From Endomicrobiales bacterium (GTDB lineage Bacteria; Elusimicrobiota; Endomicrobiia; Endomicrobiales; CAWCFT01): a stretch of 64,000 bases of DNA. Where the stretch lies: the NCBI GenBank assembly GCA_963794945.1, contig CAWCFT010000004.1, positions 160,001-224,000 of the forward strand, given 5' to 3'. The position numbers and the translations under genes were made by a program. Of this stretch, positions 4,231-64,000 are shown one piece after another. Position 1 is the first letter of the stretch, and the number at the start of each line of letters is the position of its first letter. Under the pieces are notes generated by a model, which was not told the origin of the DNA, ran no database searches, and saw nothing but the letters and a program-made list of their open reading frames with translations.

Positions 4231-4315
4231 GGACGGGTGGCAGAGCGGTCTATTGCACCAGACTGTAAATCTGGCGGGCTTACGCCCTTCGGTGGTTCAA
4301 ATCCATCCCCGTCCA
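4231..4315 (+). tRNA. tRNA-Tyr (GTA)
   Basis: Cloverleaf with CCAGA-CT-GTA-AA-TCTGG anticodon arm, long variable arm and GGTTCAAATCC T-loop. Confidence 0.97.
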
Positions 4316-4325
4316 CTTTATTACA

Positions 4326-4396
4326 CAATTACAGATTTCAAATTACAGATTAAATCATACCCGTGAAGTCAATTTGTAATATGTAATCTGCAATTG
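4326..4396. repeat. inverted heptamer-repeat hairpin (ACAGATT)n / (AATTTGT)n
   Basis: CAATT ACAGATT TCAAATT ACAGATT..AATTTGT AATATGT AATCTGC AATTG. Right arm 4371-4390 is identical to 57651-57670. Confidence 0.85.
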
Positions 4397-4403
4397 ATGC
4401 TAC

Positions 4404-4474
4404 GCGGGAGTAGCACAATGGTAGTGCGCCAGCCTTCCAAGCTGGTCACGCGGGTTCGATTCCCGTCTCCCGCT
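4404..4474 (+). tRNA. tRNA-Gly (TCC)
   Basis: GCGGGAG acceptor, CCAGC-CT-TCC-AA-GCTGG anticodon arm, GGTTCGATTCC. Confidence 0.97.
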
Positions 4475-4504
4475 CTTTAATAGTTCTTTAACATTTTAGG
4501 AAAG

Positions 4505-6195: not shown

Positions 6196-6278
6196 GCTGT
6201 AAGTCATAAGCTGTAAGCTATAAGTTGAATCCGGGCTTTAAGACTTTTCTTACAGCTTAACGCTTAAAGCTTAAAACT
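6196..6278. repeat. inverted heptamer-repeat hairpin (GCTGTAA)n / (TTACAGC)n
   Basis: GCTGTAA GTCATAA GCTGTAA GCTATAA ... TTACAGC TTAACGC TTAAAGC TTAAAAC. Confidence 0.8.
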
Positions 6279-51942: not shown

Positions 51943-52060
51943 AAAAAAAGCCACACCGCGAGAGCAGTATAGCCGTTCAGTATTTGGAATAAGTTTTTAT
52001 TAGCCGTCCCACCGCACTGACCCCGATGATACAAATTCATCCTCAGGGAATATTATAGCA
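51943..52060 (-). ncRNA. candidate leader/attenuator or small RNA, copy 2
   Basis: Homologous to 13599-13712; terminator GCTATACTGC/GCGGTGTGGC plus T7. Confidence 0.55.
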
Positions 52061-52132
52061 AATTATTTCTCAATTACCCTATCCTTCCTCCCGTCCCAGC
52101 TCCATAGCCGGGACGGGCTGATAATTTGCGGC

Positions 52133-52685
52133 TTAGGCAGAGGCCAGCGCCGAACCAGCTTTTTCAAGTTCTTTTATAAGCTCCCCGTTTTTCGCGTGAG
52201 CACCGGGGACGTTCCCGTTGCCTTCAATAACTACTTCCGTTACGGGAAAACCGAGCATGTTAAGCGCTTCTTTCGCGCACTCGAGGTTTTTAAGAAATAC
52301 TTTTTTGTCGGCCATTCCCTGTGTCACCGCCACGAGCGTTTTTTTGTTGACCTTTGACGTAAAATCGTTATTGAGGTACGGGTAGAACCTGTCAAGCACG
52401 GTTTTTGTTCTGGGCGTTCATGCTGAGCATGTAAACGGGAAAACCTATAACAACGGCGTCCGATGTCTCGATCTCCTTATATATCTTCTGCATATCGTCT
52501 TTTACGGCACAGCCGTCGTGAGTCCGGCAGTACATGCATGCCTTGCACCCGCTGATATTTAACTGCGGGATATTTATGATGCTTGTTTCCGCGCCGGAGT
52601 CCTTGGCCCCTTTAAGCGCCGCCTTTACCATTACCTCTGTGTTGCCGTTCTTTCTTGGGCTGCCGACTAATCCTAATACTTTCAT
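52133..52685 (-). CDS. NADPH-dependent FMN reductase / iron-sulfur flavoprotein, frameshift near 52405
   Basis: GSPRKNGNT, GCKACMYC, GFPVY, then LDRFY in the next frame. Confidence 0.87.
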
Positions 52686-52722
52686 TGTCCTCTCCTTGAA
52701 TTTAGTTTTTGTCTTGCCTAGC

Positions 52723-52742
52723 ATAGTTTGATATCATACTAT
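52723..52742. promoter_or_regulatory. putative MarR operator
   Basis: ATAGTTTGATATCATACTAT near-palindrome matching the site at 53188-53205. Confidence 0.6.
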
Positions 52743-52756
52743 AATGCCAAAAAAAA

Positions 52757-53178
52757 TCACAGGTTGCCGCTGATCCTTTCAAGATAACCTATAAGCGCCT
52801 CCTTCTCCTTTTCTGCGAATCCCTTATAGGCTGTTCCCAGAAGTTTTTCGGATATTTTTTTAAACACCGGTTCGAGCTTTTTGCCTTTCCCGGAAAGTTC
52901 AATCATGGTGGTCCTGCCGCATGTCTCGTGGCCGCGCCTCTTGACGTAACCGCTTGCCTCAAGCTTATCTATGAGCGCGGTAACGGTGGACTTGTGCTTG
53001 TGGATGCAGTCCGCCACCTGCCTCATAGAAAGCGGGCCGCTCCTGTACAGAGCGGTAGAATGCTGCCGTGCGACGGAACTATGCCTTTTATCCCGTTCGC
53101 GTTGAGCTCGCTTACGATCATCTTGTTCGCTTTATCGCGGACCTTTGAGACCAGGGATATTACGTGGCTTGTTTTCAT
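52757..53178 (-). CDS. MarR family transcriptional regulator, frameshift near 53055
   Basis: GIVPSHGSIL, then KHKSTVTALIDKLEASGYVKR..ELSGKG. Confidence 0.88.
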
Positions 53179-53185
53179 ACCTGCT

Positions 53186-53214
53186 ATTATAGTTTGATAT
53201 CAAACCTTTGTCAA
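53186..53214 (-). promoter_or_regulatory. sigma70 promoter of marR with a palindromic operator in the spacer
   Basis: TTGACA-17 bp (containing GTTTGATATCAAAC)-TATAAT, 7 nt before the ATG. Confidence 0.75.
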
Positions 53215-53355
53215 GCCCCCCGCAACTATTTTTTTGTGCCGCCCTTAATGGAACACCGGAAAAAAACGGAGCCTGGCAGGCTATTGGCCCTCCGGGCTCT
53301 GTTTTAGTATTTTAACCGCGCCCAGCCGCGAGAATTACCGCGGCCGGTGTAAAAG

Positions 53356-53706
53356 TTACTGGCCGGTTGTGCCTGTATTGCCGGTGTTTGTGGCGGCCGG
53401 ATGTTTTTCCTGGTATATCTGTTTGCTGCTCTGGTTAAGGTTCTGCCTGAGGCTCTTGCGCTGCTGAGCGGTAAGAGGCTTGCCGCCGTTGGCCTTTATC
53501 ATGGCCTGTTTTTCCTGTTTGTCGCCTTTGATTTCACTCCTGAGCTGCTTTGCCTGCCCTTTGGTCAGCTTGCCTTTTTTTACTCCCTGATTTATGCGCT
53601 TCTCCTGATTTTTCTCCCTGGCGTTAATTACCGGCGTATCCGCGAAAACGCACGAACCGCCCACCGTAAGAACACACACTGCTGCAGCTAAAATTCTTTT
53701 AAACAT
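53356..53706 (-). CDS. small secreted helical protein
   Basis: Signal peptide; INAREKNQEKRINQGVKKGKLT; GGAGG RBS. Confidence 0.7.
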   Translation of the reverse strand: MFKRILAAAVCVLTVGGSCVFADTPVINAREKNQEKRINQGVKKGKLTKGQAKQLRSEIKGDKQEKQAMIKANGGKPLTAQQRKSLRQNLNQSSKQIYQEKHPAATNTGNTGTTGQ

Positions 53707-53808
53707 TTTTCCCTCCGATAATAAGATGACAACTGACATCTGCTGCGTTTAACCACCTCCTTGAACGCGTTCCGTCACTTCGGACAATGATATCCGACAA
53801 AAGCTGCT

Positions 53809-54852
53809 CTACCAGATCCACTTTACGCCCGTCAGCACGTACACGGCCTGCGTAGAGAGCACGTTGTAGCCGGCCTTAAGCTGTATGGTTGATGATATCG
53901 TATAGAATACCGTGAACGTTGTAGAGTCTTCCTGAGGCTGGTCGAGCACGTAAGAGGTACGCGCCCAGTCCAGTTCCAGCTTCAGGCTGTCCCACGGCGA
54001 CACCGACACCCCGGCCGAGTAGACGCTATCCGGAAACCCGTCGATAAGAGCCGTATTCGTGCCGAAACTGCCGTTCTTGACGCCTTTTGTCCCGGAAAGC
54101 TTCGCCAGCTTCTGAGAGAAAAGGCTCACGTCTTTGTCGTACGTGTATTTCGAGCAGCCAAGATTGAAGTCGAGCAGTTCAAACAACTCGCACGTTAACG
54201 CAGGGTCAGCGTGCGTCTGCTTAAGGTCGTACCAGTCGGAGTGGTCTATGGCAACGAGTTTCGCTTTGCCGTTTTTCGCGAGCCTTTTCTGGTACGTGTT
54301 GTAGTCGATGAATTCCGATAGAGTGGCCGCGTTGTACGCAAGCGAACAGCCCCAGGTGAAGGCTTCGACATCTTCATCCTTATCCGCGGCCTGCGCAGCG
54401 TCTTGCGTATCGCCTTGATCATCGTGATCTCCGGCTTGTGCCGCATCCGGCGCCTTGACAGCCGCCTCGCCCGGCTTTTCTTCAGGCGGCGCCGGTTTCG
54501 CGCTGTTATAAGAAATGCTAGCTCCCCATCCGGACGATTTGGTGTCGTTCGCCTCCGGAGAGCCAAGCAGGTTAAACCCGAACGTAAGATGGTCGCCAGA
54601 TTTTATGGAGATGTTCCCGGTGTAGGTTTTTGTGAGGTTTGGCGTGACCGAGCTGGAACTTGACGCCTGCTCGTAACCGAGCCCGAAGTTCACTTGTTTA
54701 GTGATGTTCGCGTCAAGGTTTAATGAGCTGTCCTGGTAGGATCCGGGCCCTTGAGTGTTATCAACGCCTATGTCCGCGATGAGCAGCGGCGGTAACGCAC
54801 ACAAAAGCGCGGCGAGTGAAGACCCCAAAAATAGAATTTTGCAGCGGTTCAT
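53809..54852 (-). CDS. hypothetical outer-membrane beta-barrel protein
   Basis: Signal peptide, amphipathic strands, terminal GVKWIW; promoter TTGACT-17-TATAAT at 54863-54891. Confidence 0.65.
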   Translation of the reverse strand: MNRCKILFLGSSLAALLCALPPLLIADIGVDNTQGPGSYQDSSLNLDANITKQVNFGLGYEQASSSSSVTPNLTKTYTGNISIKSGDHLTFGFNLLGSPEANDTKSSGWGASISYNSAKPAPPEEKPGEAAVKAPDAAQAGDHDDQGDTQDAAQAADKDEDVEAFTWGCSLAYNAATLSEFIDYNTYQKRLAKNGKAKLVAIDHSDWYDLKQTHADPALTCELFELLDFNLGCSKYTYDKDVSLFSQKLAKLSGTKGVKNGSFGTNTALIDGFPDSVYSAGVSVSPWDSLKLELDWARTSYVLDQPQEDSTTFTVFYTISSTIQLKAGYNVLSTQAVYVLTGVKWIW

Positions 54853-54926
54853 TTGCAGATAAATTATACTGTCTAATATAACACAAGTCAATGGGATTTT
54901 TCGCACAAGAGAGAACCGGGTTCGGT

Positions 54927-55373
54927 TCAGGCGCTCTTGGGAAGCTGTTTGAGGGCGTGGGACATTTCCTCGACTAACGGTACGGGGAAAGATATGCCTT
55001 TGCCGGGAAGGTACTCGTTGTCTTTGAGATAGAAAGTGCGAACGTGGACTATCTTTGAGCCTTTGTATTCCTTTACGTAAACCCTTATCTTTTCGTTCTC
55101 TTTAGACTCGAGATCAAAATCGAACTCCTTTTCCGGGTTCTTGATATACCTGTCGAAAGCGCAGAGTATGGACGGCACGTGCCTGTAAGAGAGCCATATA
55201 CCTTTTCTAGTAGGCCTGTGCTTCGGCTCGCCTGGGTAGAGAAAGAAGGTCCTCACATCTATCTTGTTATTCTTGAGAACCGAGACGCGTATCTCTTCAA
55301 GCTGGTTCTTTGGGATCTTAGCGACTAACGTAGCGTTCATGAATATTACGCCCGGATCTTCTCTTACTCTCAT
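54927..55373 (-). CDS. tandem PC4/YdbC-type ssDNA-binding domain protein (start may be 55340)
   Basis: Two repeats: EEIRVS..IDVRTFF..PTRKGIWL and EKIRVY..VHVRTFY..PGKGISF. Confidence 0.75.
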   Translation of the reverse strand: MRVREDPGVIFMNATLVAKIPKNQLEEIRVSVLKNNKIDVRTFFLYPGEPKHRPTRKGIWLSYRHVPSILCAFDRYIKNPEKEFDFDLESKENEKIRVYVKEYKGSKIVHVRTFYLKDNEYLPGKGISFPVPLVEEMSHALKQLPKSA

Positions 55374-55394
55374 TTTATTTCCTTTTATAAACAG

Positions 55395-55501
55395 TGATAA
55401 GGGTTAAGCGGTAAGGGGTAAGTGAACTACACATAACAACCCAAACATACCCCGTTGTTGCTCAGTTGACTTTCTTACCACTTACACTTAACGCTTATCG
55501 C
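55395..55501. repeat. degenerate inverted heptamer-repeat hairpin
   Basis: GTGATAA GGGTTAA GCGGTAA GGGGTAA ... CTTACCA CTTACA CTTAACG CTTATCG. Confidence 0.6.
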
Positions 55502-56225
55502 TGATTTTGTTGTAATAATCATACGGCACGAATACACCTTCTCTATACTCAAGCACCATAAGATGCACGTGCGTGGGCGACGTCTTCATGTCCGCGAGGC
55601 GTCCGGTTCGGCCGACGATGCCGAGGGCTTCGCCCTTCTTTACCAAACGGCCAGGCTCAACGAATATGTCGTTTAAGTGCGCGTAATAGAAGAACTTGTT
55701 GTCTTTCGGGTTGTAGAGCCAAACGTATTTACCACCCCTGAGTTTACTTTTGGGTTCCCATACCTTATTTACAAACAATACAACACAATCTTCCATGGCG
55801 AGAGCCCTTACGGGCTGGTTCGTAACATCGTCGAGGCAGCGCCTGAACTTGTCTCTTATAAATATATCGTGGGCTGGATGGCCGCCATGCTTATTGCCGT
55901 CAAAGAAATCGTAGCCTTTTATATTGTACGGGCCGTAGACCGCGTTCGGTTGGAAATCTGTCTTCTCGAGCGCCCCACGGCCGTATGAGTCGAGCGGGAA
56001 GGCCCAGCTTGAGATCCCCAGTTCGTAAAGCGTTAGGACATAGGAAGAAAGCTCTGGCACCAGCGAATCAAGCTTAAGCTGTGCGTCTACCTTAGGTATG
56101 TTTCCATCCCTTACGGAAACCTCGTATGCCTGCCAGTCCTCAAGCGGGCCCGCGAACGCCGAGCCGCCAAAACCCAGCGCGACAAAAGATATTATAATGA
56201 GTGTTTGGAATATTTTTGTATTCAA
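55488..56225 (-). CDS. M23 family metallopeptidase
   Basis: HPAHDIF, YYAHL, VGRTG, HVHL; probable TTG start at 56225. Confidence 0.85.
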   Translation of the reverse strand: MNTKIFQTLIIISFVALGFGGSAFAGPLEDWQAYEVSVRDGNIPKVDAQLKLDSLVPELSSYVLTLYELGISSWAFPLDSYGRGALEKTDFQPNAVYGPYNIKGYDFFDGNKHGGHPAHDIFIRDKFRRCLDDVTNQPVRALAMEDCVVLFVNKVWEPKSKLRGGKYVWLYNPKDNKFFYYAHLNDIFVEPGRLVKKGEALGIVGRTGRLADMKTSPTHVHLMVLEYREGVFVPYDYYNKISDKR

Positions 56226-56326
56226 GACAGTGATAATGTTATCTAATATAAAATATTTTTGCAACCGGCGGTGATTTTGGTATAATAGTTGCGTTGGGTA
56301 TGCGAGACAGCGCACCGGAGGCTATC

Positions 56327-57151
56327 ATGAAGACCGTCGGCATTATCTACAACGACGAAAAACCCCGCGCCATAAAAGAAACGCAGAAGATAAAGAACTG
56401 GCTGAAAAAACGCGGTTGCAAAGCTGTTGTTCTTCCTTCATCCGGCAAGAACGCGGGCGAGCTCGATTTCGCTGTCTGCCTTGGCGGCGACGGAACTATG
56501 CTCAAGGCGAGCTCCTTTTTGGCGCCCGCGGGCATCCCGGTGCTGGGCGTTAACCTGGGATCGCTGGGGTTCCTTGCGGAAACCAACCCCGAAGAATGCT
56601 ACTCCTTCATCGATGGCATACTCAATAACGGCTTCAATGTTGAAGAGCGTACGATGCTCTCTGTCGGAATTACTAAAGGCTCAAAAAAGATAACACACAC
56701 AGCGTTAAACGACTGTATGATACACTCGGGCAACAACGGCCGCGTGATAACTGTAAGCGTTCATGTAAACGGTGATTTCCTCGCGGACTACGTAGGCGAC
56801 GGTTTGATAGTAGCGACGCCCACGGGTTCAACCGCCTACTCCTTAGCGGCATCGGGGCCCATCGTGCACCCTCACCTGTCTGTTTTCCTGCTTACGCCAA
56901 TATGCCCGCACACGCTGACGCAGAGGCCTATGATAATATCGGCCGGCCACACACTGTCTTTGACCGCTGACTCTGCTATAGTCCGCGAGAAACCGATACT
57001 CTCTATTGACGGGCAGACGAGTTACCTGCTTAAATCCGGCGACAGGATATCAGTTTCGCTTTCCGACCACCCGCTTAAACTTATAGTTAACCCTAAAAGG
57101 AAATACCTGGAAGTCCTGAGGACCAAACTAGGCTGGGGTATAAGGGGTTAA
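56327..57151 (+). CDS. nadK: NAD(+) kinase
   Basis: LGGDGTML, NLGSLGFL, DGLIVATPTGSTAYSLAA. Confidence 0.97.
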   Translation: MKTVGIIYNDEKPRAIKETQKIKNWLKKRGCKAVVLPSSGKNAGELDFAVCLGGDGTMLKASSFLAPAGIPVLGVNLGSLGFLAETNPEECYSFIDGILNNGFNVEERTMLSVGITKGSKKITHTALNDCMIHSGNNGRVITVSVHVNGDFLADYVGDGLIVATPTGSTAYSLAASGPIVHPHLSVFLLTPICPHTLTQRPMIISAGHTLSLTADSAIVREKPILSIDGQTSYLLKSGDRISVSLSDHPLKLIVNPKRKYLEVLRTKLGWGIRG

Positions 57152-57168
57152 GCATGCTTAACACCTTT

Positions 57169-57682
57169 ATTACAGATTTTAGAGCCAATTACAGATTACA
57201 GATTGTAATTCAAAGTCGAAGCTTTTTAGTTTCAATTGAATCTCTATGGCAACATATAAATCATTTGAAGAATTGCCAGTCTGGAAATCTGCCAGTGAAT
57301 TAGCTGCGGATATTTACAAGGCGTCTTCTTGTGGAAACATTGATAAGGACTATTCTTTTAAAGATCAAATTAGAAGGTCAGTTTTATCCGTATCGAGTAA
57401 CATCGCGGAAGGTTTTGAGCGCGGCGCAAAGAAAGAACTAATTCAGTTTTTATACATTTCGCGAGGTTCCTGCGGTGAGCTGCGCAGCCAAATCCATGTT
57501 GCAAAGAATATAGGCTATTTAACTGATATTGAATACCATAAATTACTAGATAAATGCATGCTCGTATCAAAACAAATAAACGGTTTCATTGAATACTTAA
57601 AAAAGTCGACATCCACCGGCCAGAAACTATTTATAAAGGACTTATCTGTTAATTTGTAATATGTAATCTGTAATTTGTAATT
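57169..57682 (+). mobile_element. four-helix-bundle gene cassette bounded by inverted heptamer repeats
   Basis: (ACAGATT)n at 57169-57204 and (AATTTGT/AATCTGT)n at 57651-57682, between nadK and recN. Confidence 0.55.
57246..57659 (+). CDS. four helix bundle protein (23S rRNA IVS protein / Avd-like family)
   Basis: SFEELPVW, DQIRRSVLSVSSNIAEGFER, FLYISRGSCGELRSQ. Confidence 0.93.
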   Translation: MATYKSFEELPVWKSASELAADIYKASSCGNIDKDYSFKDQIRRSVLSVSSNIAEGFERGAKKELIQFLYISRGSCGELRSQIHVAKNIGYLTDIEYHKLLDKCMLVSKQINGFIEYLKKSTSTGQKLFIKDLSVNL

Positions 57683-57688
57683 AATTCT

Positions 57689-59359
57689 ATGCTTCTAAAT
57701 TTGCATATAAAAAACTACGTTTTGATAGATGAACTGAGCCTTGAGTTCGGTGAAGGGCTGAACATTTTCACCGGCGAGACCGGGGCCGGCAAATCTATTA
57801 TAATCGAGTCCATCGGCCTCGTGCTGGGCGACAGGGCCGGCGCGGGGCTCGTCCGTAAAGGCTCAGAACGCTGTTCTATCTGTGCCGAGTTCGATATTTC
57901 AGGTTACTCCGCGCTTGAAAAATTCCTCGAACAATCAGCCCTGGCCGACGAGAACACGGGATCGCTCATCATACGCCGCGAGATAGATTCCACCGGCAAA
58001 TCCAGAGCCTTCATAAACGACCGGCCCGCGGGCATATCGACGCTTTCCTCTGTAGGCAACTTCCTTGTAGATGTTCACGGCCAGCACGAACACCAAACGC
58101 TGCTGCAGGGCAAAGTGCAGAGAGAGCTAGTCGACCGGTTCGCGGGCAACGAAAACCTCCTTGCCGACACAGCCAAACACTACGAGGCCTGGCGCGGGCT
58201 CGTCGCCCAGAAAGAGGCCAACACGGTCTCAACCCAGGAGAAGGAACGCCTTGTTGACTTATATAGTTTCCAGCTTAAAGAGATAACCTCGCTTAAACCT
58301 GTCCCGGGTGAAGACGAAGAGCTGGAACAGAAACTGCCGGTGCTAAAGAACGCGGAAAAACTGCGGGCCCTGAGCTCCGAGGCCTACGATCTCTTGTACG
58401 GCCGGGAAAGCTCGGCCATGGAGAACACGGGCAAGGCGCAGAAACTTGTAGAAAACATAATATCGATATCCGGCTCGCTTTCAGGTTCTGCCGAAACATT
58501 AAAGAACGCCTCGTCGCTTTTAGACGACGCTTTGAGGGACATAGACAAATTCCGCGGAAGCCTGGAGGCCGACCCAGACGTGCTAAATGAGCTCCTGACG
58601 CGGCAGGACCAGCTTCACAGGCTCAAAAAAAAGTACGGCAAGGACATAGCCGAGATACTCGCCTACTCCGACAAAATATCCAAATACCTCGACACTCTTA
58701 CAAACGCTGAAAAGAACTCAAAAGAGCTCGACGAAAATATAAAGAAAGCGGAGTCATCCCTTTCCGCCCTTTGCGAGAAGCTCTCCGCCTCAAGGAAGAA
58801 GGCATCTAAGAAACTTTCGGAAGGCGTGGAAAATGAACTCGGAGCGCTCGGCATGAAACGCGCGAAATTCTCGGCGGAAATTATGAAACAGGATTCCCCC
58901 TCAGGCCAGGGCTGGGACAGCGTAGGGTTCATGTTCAGCGCGAACACCGGCGAGGACTCAAAACCGCTCAAAGAGATCGCATCAGGCGGCGAGATGTCGC
59001 GTGTGATGCTCGCGCTAAAAACCGTTCTCGCGAACTCTGACGAGGTGCCTGTGCTTATATTCGACGAAATAGACGCCGGCATAGGCGGCCCGATGGGCCA
59101 GGTAGTCGGCTCTAAGCTCAAAACCCTGTCCAAACACCACCAGATACTCTGCATCACCCACCTGCCGCAGATAGCCGCGTTCGCCGAGAAACACTTTAAC
59201 GTAGAGAAAGCCGCGGATGCCGGGCAGACACTGACGCGGGTGCGCACGCTTGCGAAGAACGACCGCCTTGAAGAAGTGGCGCGGATGCTCTCCGGAAAGG
59301 AGATAACACCGGCCGCCAGAAAACATGCCATGGAACTTATTGAGCAGAGTTCGTTGTAA
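57689..59359 (+). CDS. recN: DNA repair protein RecN
   Basis: TGETGAGKS, HGQHEHQ, ASGGEMSR, FDEIDAG, ITHLPQIA. Confidence 0.98.
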   Translation: MLLNLHIKNYVLIDELSLEFGEGLNIFTGETGAGKSIIIESIGLVLGDRAGAGLVRKGSERCSICAEFDISGYSALEKFLEQSALADENTGSLIIRREIDSTGKSRAFINDRPAGISTLSSVGNFLVDVHGQHEHQTLLQGKVQRELVDRFAGNENLLADTAKHYEAWRGLVAQKEANTVSTQEKERLVDLYSFQLKEITSLKPVPGEDEELEQKLPVLKNAEKLRALSSEAYDLLYGRESSAMENTGKAQKLVENIISISGSLSGSAETLKNASSLLDDALRDIDKFRGSLEADPDVLNELLTRQDQLHRLKKKYGKDIAEILAYSDKISKYLDTLTNAEKNSKELDENIKKAESSLSALCEKLSASRKKASKKLSEGVENELGALGMKRAKFSAEIMKQDSPSGQGWDSVGFMFSANTGEDSKPLKEIASGGEMSRVMLALKTVLANSDEVPVLIFDEIDAGIGGPMGQVVGSKLKTLSKHHQILCITHLPQIAAFAEKHFNVEKAADAGQTLTRVRTLAKNDRLEEVARMLSGKEITPAARKHAMELIEQSSL

Positions 59360-59400
59360 ACTCTTCCAATCGCGATTTTTTCAAGCTGTTTTGCCCGTGT

Positions 59401-59429
59401 TTGACATTTTTATCTCAAAGAGCTAAAAT
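59401..59429 (+). promoter_or_regulatory. sigma70 promoter of the oxidoreductase operon
   Basis: TTGACA-17 bp-TAAAAT; GTG start 7 nt downstream. Confidence 0.7.
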
Positions 59430-59435
59430 ATTTTT

Positions 59436-59639
59436 GTGGAAAAAATAAAGATTGACGTAAATAAATGCAAAGGCTGCACGCTTTGCGTAATAGCGTGCCC
59501 CAAAAAGAGCCTTAAAATATCAAAAGATTTCAACAAAGCCGGGTATCACCCGGCTGTTTTTGTTGACGAGGGAAAGTGCACATCCTGCGGTTTCTGCTAC
59601 CAGGTATGCCCGGAAGTCTGTATAGAAGTGCATAAATAA
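59436..59639 (+). CDS. 2-oxoacid:ferredoxin oxidoreductase delta subunit (2x4Fe-4S)
   Basis: CKGCTLCVIACP, CTSCGFCYQVCP. Confidence 0.92.
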   Translation: MEKIKIDVNKCKGCTLCVIACPKKSLKISKDFNKAGYHPAVFVDEGKCTSCGFCYQVCPEVCIEVHK

Positions 59640-59646
59640 CAAAGGC

Positions 59647-59733
59647 ATTACAGATTACAAATTACAGATTTCAGATTTAAATTCAATGTCAAAGGCTTTC
59701 AATTTGTAATATATAATCTGTAATTTGTAATTG
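59647..59733. repeat. inverted heptamer-repeat hairpin (gene-less copy)
   Basis: ACAGATT ACAAATT ACAGATT TCAGATT ... AATTTGT AATATAT AATCTGT AATTTGT. Confidence 0.85.
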
Positions 59734-59740
59734 AGAAATT

Positions 59741-60793
59741 ATGAAACAGTTAATAAAAGGCAACATTGCTTTGTGTGAGGGCGCGATAGCGGCCGGGTGC
59801 ATGGCATATTTCGGCTACCCGATCACACCTCAGAACGAAGTGCCGGCTTACATGTCCAGAAAGATGGTAGAGCTGGGTAGGGTATTCCTGCAAGCCGAAA
59901 GCGAGCTTGCGGCGGTAAACATGGTTCTAGGCGCGGGCGTAACGGGAACGAGGGCGATGACATCATCTTCTTCACCCGGAATATCGCTAAAGCAAGAAGG
60001 TATATCTTACCTCGCTGCATGCGAAGTGCCAAGCGTTATAGTTAACGTCCAGCGCGGAGGGCCCGGCCTCGGAAACATAGCTGGATCGCAGGCAGACTAC
60101 TTTCAGGCTGTCAAAGGCGGCGGACACGGCGACTACCGCATGCCGGTGCTTGCCCCGTACTCTGTGCAGGAAATGTACGACCACGCTGTGCTCGCGTTCG
60201 ACCTTGCTGACAAGTACAGGACGCCTGTAATGATACTATCTGACGGCATTGTAGGCCAGATGATGGAGCCGGCGGACATTGATTCGCCAAAAATCTCTAA
60301 AGACAAACCTTCTTATGACAGGTCGTGGATTCTGGACGGTGCAAAAGGCAGGGAACCTAGGTCCGTAAAGTCGCTTCTCATGGGAGAGGGAGATCTTGAA
60401 AAACATAACCTTGACCTTGCCGCAAAGTACGATAGGATAAAGAACAGTGAAGTTAGGTTCGAAAAATACGATATTGAAGACGCAGATATAATACTTGTCG
60501 CGTTCGGAGTTTCGGCGCGCGTGGCAAAGGCCGCGATGTGGCGGGCGAGACAGAAAGGCGTGAAGGCAGGCTGTATAAGGCCCATCACTCTCTGGCCGTT
60601 CCCGGAAAAGATAATAGCGGACTCGGCTAAGCACGGCAGGAAGTTCCTCGTTGTAGAGATGAACATGGGCCAGATGGTGGAAGACGTAAGGCTCGCAGTA
60701 AACGGCAAATGCCCGGTCCACTTTCACGGAAGGGCCGGCGGCGCGACTGTAAACGAAAACGACGTCTTAGACGCCATAATGAAACTCAAATAA
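59741..60793 (+). CDS. vorB: 2-ketoisovalerate/2-oxoacid:ferredoxin oxidoreductase alpha-type subunit
   Basis: FGYPITPQ, QAESE, SSSPGISLKQE, RPITLWPFP. Confidence 0.9.
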   Translation: MKQLIKGNIALCEGAIAAGCMAYFGYPITPQNEVPAYMSRKMVELGRVFLQAESELAAVNMVLGAGVTGTRAMTSSSSPGISLKQEGISYLAACEVPSVIVNVQRGGPGLGNIAGSQADYFQAVKGGGHGDYRMPVLAPYSVQEMYDHAVLAFDLADKYRTPVMILSDGIVGQMMEPADIDSPKISKDKPSYDRSWILDGAKGREPRSVKSLLMGEGDLEKHNLDLAAKYDRIKNSEVRFEKYDIEDADIILVAFGVSARVAKAAMWRARQKGVKAGCIRPITLWPFPEKIIADSAKHGRKFLVVEMNMGQMVEDVRLAVNGKCPVHFHGRAGGATVNENDVLDAIMKLK

Positions 60794-60794
60794 C

Positions 60795-61544
60795 ATGAAC
60801 AAAATATTTGGAAAACCCGAAGCCTTAAAACCAGCGTGCCACCTCTACTGCCCCGGCTGCGGCCACGGCGTAATTCACAGGCTTGTGGCTGAGGCGATAG
60901 ACGAGCTTGGCCTGCGCGAGAGAACAATAGCCGTCGCGCCGGTCGGCTGCGCAGTTTTCGCTTACGACTATTTCAATTTTGACGTTACCGAAGCTCCGCA
61001 CGGAAGGCCGCCTGCTGTTGCGACCGGCATAAAGAGGGTCATGCCCGACAAATTCGTGTTCACGTACCAGGGCGACGGCGACCTTGCTTCTATAGGTATG
61101 GCAGAAACACTGCACTGCGCCAACCGCGGTGAGAAAATAACCATTATTTTCGTCAATAACGCCAATTATGGTATGACCGGCGGCCAGATGGCCCCGACTA
61201 CCCTCATCGGGCAAAAGACGGCAACGAGCCCCTTCGGCAGGGACCCGGAACGTGAAGGCTACCCTCTGAAAATATGCGAATTGCTTTCCACTCTCGAAGG
61301 CGTTGAATACCTTGAGAGGGTCGCAGTCAATAACCCTAAAAATGTATTGAGCGCGAAAAGAGCGATAAAAAAAGCTTTCAAAAACCAGATAGACGGCAAG
61401 GGGTTCTCGCTTATCGAAGTTCTCTCCCAGTGCCCGGTAGACTGGGACAAAACCCCTGAGGATGCCGTTAAGTGGGTTGACGAAGTGTTTATGAAAACGT
61501 TCCCGCTGGGTGTTTACAAAGACAAAACGGCAATTAAAGATTGA
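60795..61544 (+). CDS. 2-oxoacid:ferredoxin oxidoreductase beta (TPP-binding) subunit
   Basis: YCPGCGHG, YQGDGDL, NNANYGMTGGQMAPT. Confidence 0.93.
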   Translation: MNKIFGKPEALKPACHLYCPGCGHGVIHRLVAEAIDELGLRERTIAVAPVGCAVFAYDYFNFDVTEAPHGRPPAVATGIKRVMPDKFVFTYQGDGDLASIGMAETLHCANRGEKITIIFVNNANYGMTGGQMAPTTLIGQKTATSPFGRDPEREGYPLKICELLSTLEGVEYLERVAVNNPKNVLSAKRAIKKAFKNQIDGKGFSLIEVLSQCPVDWDKTPEDAVKWVDEVFMKTFPLGVYKDKTAIKD

Positions 61545-61607
61545 AAATTGAAGATTTGGAAAATTAATAGACGTGAATCTTGAATTTTCTAATCTTAAAT
61601 TTTCAAT
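61538..61607. repeat. inverted heptamer-repeat hairpin (AAGATTG-type)
   Basis: AAGATTG AAAATTG AAGATTT ... TAATCTT AAATTTT CAAT. Confidence 0.65.
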
Positions 61608-61619
61608 ATGGTGTTAACT

Positions 61620-62159
61620 ATGCAAACAGAGATAATAATTGCGGGGTTCGGCGGACAGGGCGTGCTCTTTGCTGGCATGCTGCTGGCCCAGGCGGCTGTT
61701 GAGGAGAACAAACAAACCACATGGTTCCCTTCCTACGGCGCCGAGATACGCGGCGGCACCGCAAACTCAACCGTGATAATATCGGACGATGAAATAGGTT
61801 CACCGGTGGTAGTCAACCCATCCGCCCTTATAATCCTAAACGAGCAGTCGCTTAACAAGTTCATGGGGAGGGCTGCTGAAGGTGCAGTTATCGTAGTGAA
61901 CTCCTCACTCTGCGGCAAGAACGCCGCAAAGACTGGCTCAACAGTCGTCTGCGTGCCGGCCTCCGAGATAGCGGACAAGCAGCTCGGCGACGGCAGGGTG
62001 ACAAACATGGTCATGATCGGGGCATACCTCAAGGCGAGCGGCGTCCTCAAGCTGCGAAGCGCGCAGGCCGCCTGCGAAAAAGCGCTGAAGGAAAAACCCA
62101 AGCTTATAGACGTTAACAAGAAGGCACTTGAACTAGGATTTAACTACGGAGATATATAA
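61620..62159 (+). CDS. 2-oxoacid:ferredoxin oxidoreductase gamma subunit
   Basis: AGFGGQG, PSYGAEIRGGTA, NMVMIGA. Confidence 0.93.
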   Translation: MQTEIIIAGFGGQGVLFAGMLLAQAAVEENKQTTWFPSYGAEIRGGTANSTVIISDDEIGSPVVVNPSALIILNEQSLNKFMGRAAEGAVIVVNSSLCGKNAAKTGSTVVCVPASEIADKQLGDGRVTNMVMIGAYLKASGVLKLRSAQAACEKALKEKPKLIDVNKKALELGFNYGDI

Positions 62160-62620
62160 TGAAGATAAGGCCCGCAAAAGTTACTGACGTAAAAACTATA
62201 CAATCCATAATCGCGCACTACGCCGAAAAGAAGGAAATGCTGCCGAGGTCGCTTAACGACATCTATGAGAACATCCAGGAGTATGTGGTATGCGAAGACA
62301 AGTCCAAGGTTGTCGGCTGCTGCGCCCTGCACGTCTCGTGGGAAGATTTAGCAGAGATAAAAGCGCTGGCCATAGCCCAGAACTATCAGGGCAAAGGCAT
62401 AGGCACTAAGCTTGTCAAGACTTGCCACAAGAAAGCGAACGATCTTGGCATAAAGAAGGCTTTCGCCCTGACCTTCAAGCCCCGGTTTTTTTTAAAACTC
62501 GGGTACACACAGATATCCAGAGAATCCCTGCCGCACAAGATATGGGGCGAATGCGTTAAATGCCCCCTCTTCCCTGACTGCGGAGAAGTGCCACTCATAC
62601 TGGACCTCAACGAAAAATAA
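62159..62620 (+). CDS. GNAT N-acetyltransferase, short ArgA-like (amino-acid N-acetyltransferase)
   Basis: MLPRS, WEDLAEIKALA, LPHKIWGECVKCP. Confidence 0.82.
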   Translation: MKIRPAKVTDVKTIQSIIAHYAEKKEMLPRSLNDIYENIQEYVVCEDKSKVVGCCALHVSWEDLAEIKALAIAQNYQGKGIGTKLVKTCHKKANDLGIKKAFALTFKPRFFLKLGYTQISRESLPHKIWGECVKCPLFPDCGEVPLILDLNEK

Positions 62621-62678
62621 GAATTATCTTAGGTGGGAGATTGATAAGCGCGCGGCCTATGCGCGACCGGACTTCTAT

Positions 62679-63236
62679 CTATACTTGTGCTTCGCCGCCG
62701 GGTTTTTCCGTTTCTTTAATGAACGGCGAGAGGAAGAAGCTCTGAACTATTACGAACAGCAGCATAAAACCCATTATGCCGAACAACTTGAAATTTACCC
62801 ACGTGCCAGTGGGATATCTGTAAGCCACGAACAGGTTTAATCCTCCCAGAACAGCGAAAAATATACCCCACGCAGCGTTGAGCCTGGCCCAAACCACTTC
62901 AGGAAGGACGACCTGCTTTCCCAGCACGCCTTTCATAGTATTCTTGGCGAACAGGGCCTGCCCAAAAAGAATTATTGCGGCGAACACCCAGTATAGTATC
63001 GTCGGTTTCCATTTAATGAATATCTCCTTGTGCAGAAGGAGCGTCGAGCCGCCGAAAAGAAGTATTATGGCCAAGCTTATCCACATCATCTTTTCAACAT
63101 TGCGCGTTCGGACATAAGATATTATTATCTGCAGCATGCTTGCGACTATCGCCACACCTGTCGCAAAGTATATCCCCTTTATCTTAAACGCCACGAAAAA
63201 CAGTATGATCGGCAGCAGCTCGAACAACATTTTCAT
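62679..63236 (-). CDS. yciB: inner membrane protein YciB / septation protein A
   Basis: LFELLPIILFF, FIKWKPT, WVNFKLFG. Confidence 0.93.
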   Translation of the reverse strand: MKMLFELLPIILFFVAFKIKGIYFATGVAIVASMLQIIISYVRTRNVEKMMWISLAIILLFGGSTLLLHKEIFIKWKPTILYWVFAAIILFGQALFAKNTMKGVLGKQVVLPEVVWARLNAAWGIFFAVLGGLNLFVAYRYPTGTWVNFKLFGIMGFMLLFVIVQSFFLSPFIKETEKPGGEAQV

Positions 63237-63276
63237 AGTCAGACTCCTCTATTAGTTACGACCAAAAGAAACGACC

Positions 63277-64000
63277 CTACGATCTTTTGTATATTCTGAT
63301 GACGGGGCATATGTACCTCCAATCATGTGGCGCGCTGCCGTCGATCATCTTTATCCCAAGAAATTCTGGATACCTCTCAAATGTCTTCACAAGCCGATAG
63401 TTACTGCCGCTCATTATATCGTTAAGCATAGGCAGCACCTCCGGATGCGGGAACTTATTATTAAGGCACAGCACCGGGTAATATTCGTAATCGCTTAGTA
63501 TAACGTAATCGGGATTTTCCTTTTTGAGGTTCTCGATCTTTTCCGTTAGCTGCACCATATCGTACTTTTTTAGTCCCTTCAAGACAGATTCATCTGACTT
63601 ATACCAATACTCGGCCATCACTATCGATGGATTCCAGAAATACATGTAGGGAACCCCTATTTTAGACCCCTCCGGGATGTTCTCTTCGATCCAATACGAT
63701 GCCTCATCTCTAACATCCGTTTTCGACATCAAATTAACGTGCGCATAAGAGTAGGCGAGCGTGTATACTGATATCAGTCCAACCGCAACCAATGAAATAA
63801 CTCTGTATCTTTGAATTGACATTACAAACCTCGCGCTGAGCACGCATAGCACCGGTATGAACGCTACCGACCATCTAGCGAGCCGCCAGGGAGAAGCCCC
63901 AAGAAGAGCCCAAAGAAGAATTAACACCGCTAATAAGAGAATATCGGTTTTCTCCCGCTTTATGAACGCGTAAATTACCGAGATCCCGGACAAGAGTAAA
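63277..64000 (-). CDS. C-terminal part of a membrane glycosyltransferase (GT39/ArnT-like), truncated by the window end
   Basis: TM helices with LARWSVAFIP, then DVRDEASYWI..PDYVIL soluble domain. Confidence 0.6.
   Translation of the reverse strand, partial: LLLSGISVIYAFIKREKTDILLLAVLILLWALLGASPWRLARWSVAFIPVLCVLSARFVMSIQRYRVISLVAVGLISVYTLAYSYAHVNLMSKTDVRDEASYWIEENIPEGSKIGVPYMYFWNPSIVMAEYWYKSDESVLKGLKKYDMVQLTEKIENLKKENPDYVILSDYEYYPVLCLNNKFPHPEVLPMLNDIMSGSNYRLVKTFERYPEFLGIKMIDGSAPHDWRYICPVIRIYKRS

Follow-up and report, generated by a model that had tools for sequence, protein, structure and literature searches.

Inverted repeat doublets with a dedicated protein partner are best described in the REPIN-RAYT system (Bertels and Rainey 2011, PMC3337134), in which the doublets have variable spacers, lie in extragenic positions and are accompanied by a single-copy partner gene per repeat group, several such groups being present per genome. 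The intervening sequence (IVS) in the 23S rRNA of Coxiella burnetii contains an S23p gene inside its terminal stem, carries tandem GACAGAT heptamers at its 5' arm, and is described as sporadic and horizontally acquired (PMC4990558). Heptamer repeats of the unit GGGAATC have been published for Xanthomonas and were read as G-quadruplex DNA (Rehm et al. 2015, PMC4692102). A supplementary table of that article places a four-unit GGGAATC array over the start codon of XCC0516, the gene of PDB entry 2GSC, and its main text contains no mention of XCC0516, S23 or "helix". The TAACTGA repeats of the Beggiatoaceae are short intergenic heptamer arrays before start codons, mostly single and direct, with a patchy distribution across phyla, and it was suggested that their binding protein may be the mobile part (MacGregor 2015, PMC4679880); that report does not mention a four-helix bundle, S23 or Avd. 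Finally, Avd, the accessory protein found with reverse transcriptases of diversity-generating retroelements (DGRs), is a pentamer with no catalytic role of its own; it binds an RNA stem-loop and holds flipped bases in crevices between the five protomers (bioRxiv 10.1101/2023.10.23.563531).

The locus described here lies in a window of 64,000 nucleotides, the whole stretch of Endomicrobiales DNA that was analysed, and resembles each of these systems in part. Like the Xanthomonas heptamers, its repeats have about four units per arm and form inverted pairs behind stop codons and between co-oriented genes; unlike them, the units are AT-rich, the class-A unit of the window cassette has no G run, so that no quadruplex is possible, and several unit classes, each with its own gene, coexist. 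The protein family and the terminal stem enclosing the reading frame are shared with the Coxiella IVS, whose GACAGAT heptamer is, when rotated, one letter away from the class-A unit. By contrast to the IVS, the window cassette occupies a junction of protein genes rather than an rRNA helix, a gene-less copy lies at a tRNA junction, and there are many gene-less copies in all. An IVS is cut out of its rRNA by RNase III, and the ends are not rejoined. With respect to REPIN-RAYT, the partner is a four-helix bundle and not a Y1 HUH transposase, the arms are tandem 7- or 8-mers and not palindromic REPs, and the bundle genes appear to cross phyla and decay often. The predicted fold is that of Avd, but the gene is flanked by nadK and recN, neither a template nor a variable repeat is seen, and no reverse transcriptase (RVT_1) match was found in the 86%-complete genome. 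The system works like REPIN-RAYT while failing its defining feature; it differs from an IVS in its position, and it is not a DGR. Gene-less inverted heptamer pairs and rRNA IVS heptamers are known; a literature search, mostly at the level of titles and abstracts and with thin coverage of subscription journals, returned no report connecting the PF05635 family with intergenic repeat hairpins.

The first-pass annotation had placed a four-helix-bundle gene between nadK and recN and proposed that inverted arms bracket the whole gene in one stem. Profile matches and the models of the flanking genes agree with this arrangement, which comprises the following features:

56294..57151, + strand: nadK, the upstream host gene (NAD kinase models; stop at 57151)
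57169..57205, + strand: 5' arm of the filled cassette, ATTACAG units (sequence, fold, class-A profile)
57207..57232, + strand: inner segment, homologous with the loop found in class-A hairpins that have no gene (20/26 identical to 59680-59705)
57246..57659, + strand: intact four-helix-bundle gene, 137 aa (TIGR02436 and PF05635; match to PDB 2GSC)
57651..57682, + strand: 3' arm, four (A/C/T)TGTAAT units (sequence, fold, class-A profile)
57689..59359, + strand: recN, the downstream host gene (TIGR00634, 556 bits)

The core of the 5' arm spans 57187-57205, its outer units being degenerate. In a fold of 57140-57700 this core pairs with 57664-57682 in a predicted 19-bp stem that contains two G.U pairs and loops out the entire gene (z -3.9; none of 100 shuffles as good). 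The 3' arm overlaps the stop codon of the bundle gene and ends 6 nt before the recN ATG, upstream of which no Shine-Dalgarno-like run is present. As had been noticed at first reading, the inner segment resembles the loop of the gene-less copy at 59647 (20 of 26 bases; z 5.4; 0/200 shuffles), and it is likely the remaining loop of a 5' hairpin that has lost its 3' arm to decay. Two relatives of the cassette (L031 and L033) have a complete hairpin at this position, and the 5' part of the window cassette matches the hairpin-gene-hairpin layout of L033. Recombination between such direct hairpin repeats would leave a solo hairpin. Reads of a single DNA run, which contained 0.09 of the sequence words, matched 52000-64000 in short, dispersed fragments and showed no junction spanning the cassette. 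The hexamer ATGCTT, found 2 nt after the nadK stop and again at the recN start, was considered as a target-site duplication and set aside in view of the lack of a genome-wide excess.

A separate 13-bp hairpin (57140-57170) covers the nadK stop codon and holds an ATG in its loop. This ATG lies at 57154 behind a GGGG run, and the six bases beginning with it are those with which recN starts. Its frame, 49 codons long, crosses the 5' arm and enters the small gene, which is read in a different frame (57140-57303). The ATG could be the former start of recN, or it could belong to a leader with the role of unfolding the stem.

The protein encoded by 57246-57659 scores 111.9 bits against TIGR02436 (cut-off 24) and 114.3 bits against PF05635 (E 4e-33; cut-off 33.8), the only family of the latter collection that it matches, and its sequence also matches the four-helix-bundle protein of PDB 2GSC (E 6e-13). 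A single-sequence fold model (pLDDT 68) is all-helical, and its comparison with 48,161 chains revealed a predicted four-helix up-down bundle closest to 2GSC (Z 16.7, rmsd 1.6, 112 aligned), followed by 2RLD (Z 14.3) and, in third place, Avd (4DWL; Z 12.8, rmsd 1.9, 106 aligned, 10% identity); helical bundles score high by default in such rankings, and 2GSC is additionally backed by the sequence match. Because 2GSC has five chains, and is described as a homopentamer (PMC4990558), an Avd-like homopentameric ring is predicted for the window protein. No match was found in 50,697 phage records, and 32 of 72,556 plasmid records match. Bacteroides thetaiotaomicron, a commensal in the control set, has the family.

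The same arms had been reported without a gene at two other places in the window. Both copies were located and fold beyond shuffled controls, with z values of -3.7 (59635-59750) and -4.2 (4315-4405) and 0/200 shuffles as good in each case. A 20-mer is identical at 4371 and 57651 and carries one mismatch at 59701, as first annotated, and has a further exact copy at C10:8185. Hairpins and arms of other unit classes are also present (no strand is assigned to any of these features):

4328..4394: gene-less class-A hairpin between tRNA-Tyr (4231-4316) and tRNA-Gly (4404-4475)
6200..6273: gene-less hairpin of the TAAGCTG class, whose own paralogue is on contig C6
7155..7235: second TAAGCTG-class hairpin (class profile)
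55398..55425: TAAGGGG-class arm, with no cognate paralogue found in the assembly
59647..59731: class-A hairpin without a gene, 4+4 units, 7 nt past the oxidoreductase delta stop codon
61533..61607: ATT(N)AAG-class hairpin without a gene; the paralogue of this class is on contig C5

An Rfam scan of the window returned four tRNAs and nothing else. The stretch 54927-55373 (- strand) encodes a 148-residue protein that matches the PC4-type single-stranded-DNA-binding domain, with the motif apparently in two copies.

We further analysed the repeats across the assembly (2.9 Mb, 86% complete). Arrays of period 7 number 236, and the control lags 4, 5, 8, 10, 11 and 13 give 5, 3, 18, 4, 7 and 2, respectively; a chance origin is excluded by this difference. 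Profiles of eight unit classes detect 329 arms, 220 of which form 110 inverted pairs, two of these being mis-pairings across neighbouring hairpins; class A accounts for 28 arms and 11 pairs. The single repeat family initially recognised is real, and it is one of eight modelled classes, seven of which have inverted pairs. The arms mostly contain three or four strong units, and in all 104 close pairs the purine-rich arm comes first. By our own gene calls, 186 of 2521 co-oriented junctions (about 7%) carry an array.

A simple gene caller of our own places 106 of the 110 inverted pairs at junctions of co-oriented genes and none at divergent junctions. The 5' arm starts at most 15 nt past the upstream stop in 77 of 106 cases, and some arms overlap it. 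A gene's stop codon, a tRNA end, or a stretch behind a promoter-like site describes the target better than the earlier, more general proposal of co-transcribed gene junctions. Flanking direct repeats show no excess over shuffled pairs (98 and 108 elements), which sets the elements apart from the MITEs of a DDE transposase, two single-site exceptions aside. The 10-bp direct repeat that flanks one gene-less copy (C4:148565) was, as with ATGCTT, set aside as a general feature. Two further ideas were not convincing. Stops in all frames as the purpose of the period yielded 2.06 vs 1.82 frames for 5' arms and 1.14 vs 1.01 frames for 3' arms over 51 loci, and a common core motif in loops and flanks was only about two-fold enriched, mostly in one class.

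The genome contains five genes of the four-helix-bundle family, each with its own unit:

window paralogue: ATTACAG unit, both arms
contig C5 paralogue: ATTTAAG unit
contig C6 paralogue: TAAGCTG unit
contig C8 paralogue: ATCAAAA unit
contig C2 paralogue: ATCTCAG unit, clear 5' arm only, plus units inside the reading frame

All five paralogues thus carry flanking arms, a clear one at the 5' side only in the case of C2. Among ten relatives of the window protein from a genome collection, nine (44-65% identity) have class-A arms of the form ATT(A/T)CA(G/A) at unrelated sites, in metagenome-assembled genomes labelled Planctomycetota, Bacillota, Omnitrophota and Nitrospirales, and the tenth and most distant (39% identity) has a different unit. 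A larger sample of 83 stretches combined these ten relatives with the surroundings of 74 of the 78 family matches (61 genomes of the order); it gave 81 profile matches, 77 of them with both flanks. Inverted arrays were found at 54 of the 77 loci (36 of period 7, 17 of period 8 and one of period 6), compared with 52/400 (13%) for swapped flanks, 18/77 in direct orientation and 13/736 for small host genes; several of the 23 loci at which the test failed show arms by eye. A protein tree (80 sequences, 125 columns) leaves many forks unresolved; sister proteins in it often have the same units. The window protein groups with L031-L037 in a clade supported at 98/97, to which the C2-like ATCTCAG group also belongs, and one locus (L099) has a similar unit beside a distant protein.

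Within genomes the coupling is looser. The class-A hairpin pattern occurs in two of the 61 genomes of the order, and its strict form in three of five genomes with a class-A protein. One genome (G008, 92% complete) has 69 class-A pattern matches, counted with overlaps and on both strands, and no class-A protein was found in it, the best match being 45% identical and placed elsewhere than in the class-A clade. Three paired unit classes of the present genome (E, F and I) have no paralogue in the assembly. For class D, the pattern is most frequent in the two genomes that have the class-D protein, with a few matches in three others. At the level of the sequences compared, the repeat unit is shown to track the protein subfamily across phyla, and its coupling to the protein within a genome is imperfect.

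Some loci of the sample depart from this layout. The sister proteins L048 and L080 vs L069 differ by a switch between period-8 and period-7 arms. In the clade of the C2 copy (C2:164419-164817), L100, L102 and L104, repeat units lie inside the coding sequence and are translated in the region of the last helix; the C2 copy appears to have a frameshift close to its end. In five Planctomycetes loci (L032, L034, L035, L036 and L040) the 3' arm enters the start of the next gene, which we take to be miaB-like, and may be translated as its N-terminal extension.

The three window junctions were compared with those of relatives at the level of the order. Between nadK and recN, no family gene is present in 29 relatives; the two genes are 21 nt or less apart in 20 of 28, and one relative (L005) has a hairpin of another unit. 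Of 19 relatives compared at the delta/alpha junction, 11 are near-empty there and two have decaying cassettes of another unit (L135 and L139). The tRNA-Tyr/Gly junction is short in 8 of 16, with hairpins of other units in two. The presence/absence polymorphism anticipated in the first-pass annotation is therefore observed, the three junctions being empty, filled or occupied by another unit in relatives. At another junction of the order, one genome is filled (G038), two have other units (G035 and G023), one has a REP-like element (G044) and one has no arms (G039). A site in genus g17 is empty in seven of 12 relatives, the same in two, a remnant in one and occupied by another unit in two. In the empty form the stop codon is one base from the start codon; the filled form begins at that stop and brings its own ribosome-binding site, and no duplication is seen in filled vs true empty alleles. 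At a second g17 site, five unit types occur at the same stop among 8 genomes. Internal stops interrupt 7 of the 78 family matches across the order. The gene has the orientation of both flanks in 31 of 35 cases.

In g17, a tiny hairpin with a three-base loop accompanies L171-L175 and their orthologues, often after the 3' arm and before the ribosome-binding site; it persists when the arm class changes.

Since the repeat letters follow the protein subfamily and the gene-less arms turn over behind stop codons, a selfish element is likely. We give a probability of roughly one half to the reading that the arms and the bundle protein form a selfish pair of the REPIN/RAYT type, in which the partner would be an Avd-like ring and not a known transposase. 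The element would be a promoterless piece of DNA in which a four-helix-bundle gene is enclosed by two inverted arrays, each of about four units. The predicted five-part ring would read the letters of its own repeat on a single strand, more likely RNA than DNA, and bind about four units, much as Avd holds the flipped-out bases of its stem-loop between subunits. Such binding would keep the unit letters fixed and mark the hairpins for copying. Strand breakage, which would proceed without target duplication, is likely provided by the host or by a partner enzyme, as Avd serves a reverse transcriptase. The paired arms would make the insert tolerable, and RNase III, whose gene is present in the genome, may cut the stem as in the Coxiella rRNA IVS. 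The more specific version, in which a pentameric ring accommodates one 7- or 8-base unit per subunit crevice and directs hairpin copying without a transposase to positions behind stop codons, with elements of unlike units displacing one another there, is offered tentatively and is the less probable claim.

The conservation of the arms bears on what is recognised. Within the five main classes the core letters of the unit are constant at 97-99%, neighbouring units seldom have the same sequence, and no covariation was found between the variable letters of paired arms. In all six classes tested, pairing between the two arms of one copy is slightly weaker than their pairing with arms taken from other copies. 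An artefact of orientation was considered as the source, but the correction reduced the deficit and did not remove it (+1.3 to +4.4 kcal/mol). For this reason the stem receives no support from covariation, and the conservation of letters rather than of covarying pairs favours sequence-specific recognition over a purely structural role of RNA. The pattern fits arms in which perfect repeats and perfect palindromes are disfavoured and the letters are what is recognised. The transcribed strand gives the better arm duplex in 61 cases and its complement in 33 (p 0.002, the copies not being independent), and the sense-strand bias in folding of whole elements is modest (64/98 vs a background of 168/300, p 0.02); the strand bias is a weak hint at RNA. 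Most copies have one polarity relative to transcription and some are flipped, and because inversion between the arms could explain the flips, polarity decides neither for DNA nor for RNA.

The constancy of the letters and the number of about four units per arm would also suit a host regulatory network, in which the bundle protein acts as an RNA-binding regulator in the manner of TRAP and the arrays are operators for the next gene, kept by selection. The position of the arms, behind a stop codon and ahead of the next ribosome-binding site, points the same way, and Shine-Dalgarno words are enriched directly downstream. A similar idea has been proposed for the TAACTGA repeats (PMC4679880). Operators kept by selection are, however, difficult to reconcile with orthologous junctions that switch among empty, filled and five different units in close species, with hairpins that persist where the cognate gene was not found, or with family genes that are often broken and common to several phyla. 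We regard this explanation as unlikely.

Equally improbable in our estimate is that only the filled cassette moves and that the gene-less copies are passive scars, left where the gene was deleted in place. Such deletions do occur: at the junction filled in G038, the gene-less allele of G042 (L112) is an internal deletion of the filled cassette (L055). The decaying cassettes at the delta/alpha junction and the resemblance, by eye, of several class-B loops to the ends of the C8 cassette point in the same direction. Against this, genome G021 has gene-less copies at five unrelated sites with one common loop and nearly one length (77-78 nt), the present genome has twin gene-less copies at C1:325983 and C4:148565, and there are up to 55 pairs per class vs one gene per class. 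The filled/empty relation put forward at the outset is seen directly: gene-less forms are shown to arise by deletion of the gene and also to occur as near-identical copies at unrelated sites.

HUH elements move without target duplication, and the lack of such a duplication would suit hairpins moved by a Y1 transposase encoded elsewhere, with the bundle gene as cargo. Five Y1_Tnp matches are present in the genome and REP-like palindromes nest in several loops. Such cargo would need no unit of its own, though, whereas the unit follows the four-helix-bundle clade across phyla, and only one of three identical IS200-like copies lies in a hairpin, which also led us to discard targeting of the hairpins by IS200; we consider this explanation doubtful, more so than the two preceding ones. 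Class-B loops were seen to nest an IS200-like transposase gene, short derivatives with its ends, and REP-like palindromes:

C11:109946-110591: nested element in a class-B loop
C2:73225-73593: nested element in a class-B loop
C2:74490-74847: nested element in a class-B loop
C1:81080-81271: nested element in a class-B loop
C4:57903-58171: nested element in a class-B loop

RNA processing as the main role, with the stems serving as RNase III sites at which polycistronic transcripts are divided and the RNA of the small gene is set free, draws on the 19-bp stem, the slight transcribed-strand bias and the RNase III cut in the first GACAGAT repeat of the Coxiella IVS (PMC4990558), but is similarly improbable, as the arms do not covary and neither unit-protein coupling nor turnover is explained, and it may be a side effect.

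The selfish pair of repeat and ring would tie together a protein family of no assigned function, the ORF-bearing rRNA IVS and the heptamer repeats of many bacteria. If true, the ring reading would explain the PF05635 family as well as the excess of heptamer repeats in bacterial genomes, and would provide a small, re-specifiable reader of nucleic acid. With arrays at about 7% of co-oriented junctions, the elements could affect operon expression and serve as landing sites. Five paralogues with five units in one genome offer an unusually clean test. A single gene of the GxxExxY family (TIGR04256) at G000:C1:343700-344100 is, by eye, apparently flanked by inverted 9-base units, and this second sporadic protein family may use the same packaging.
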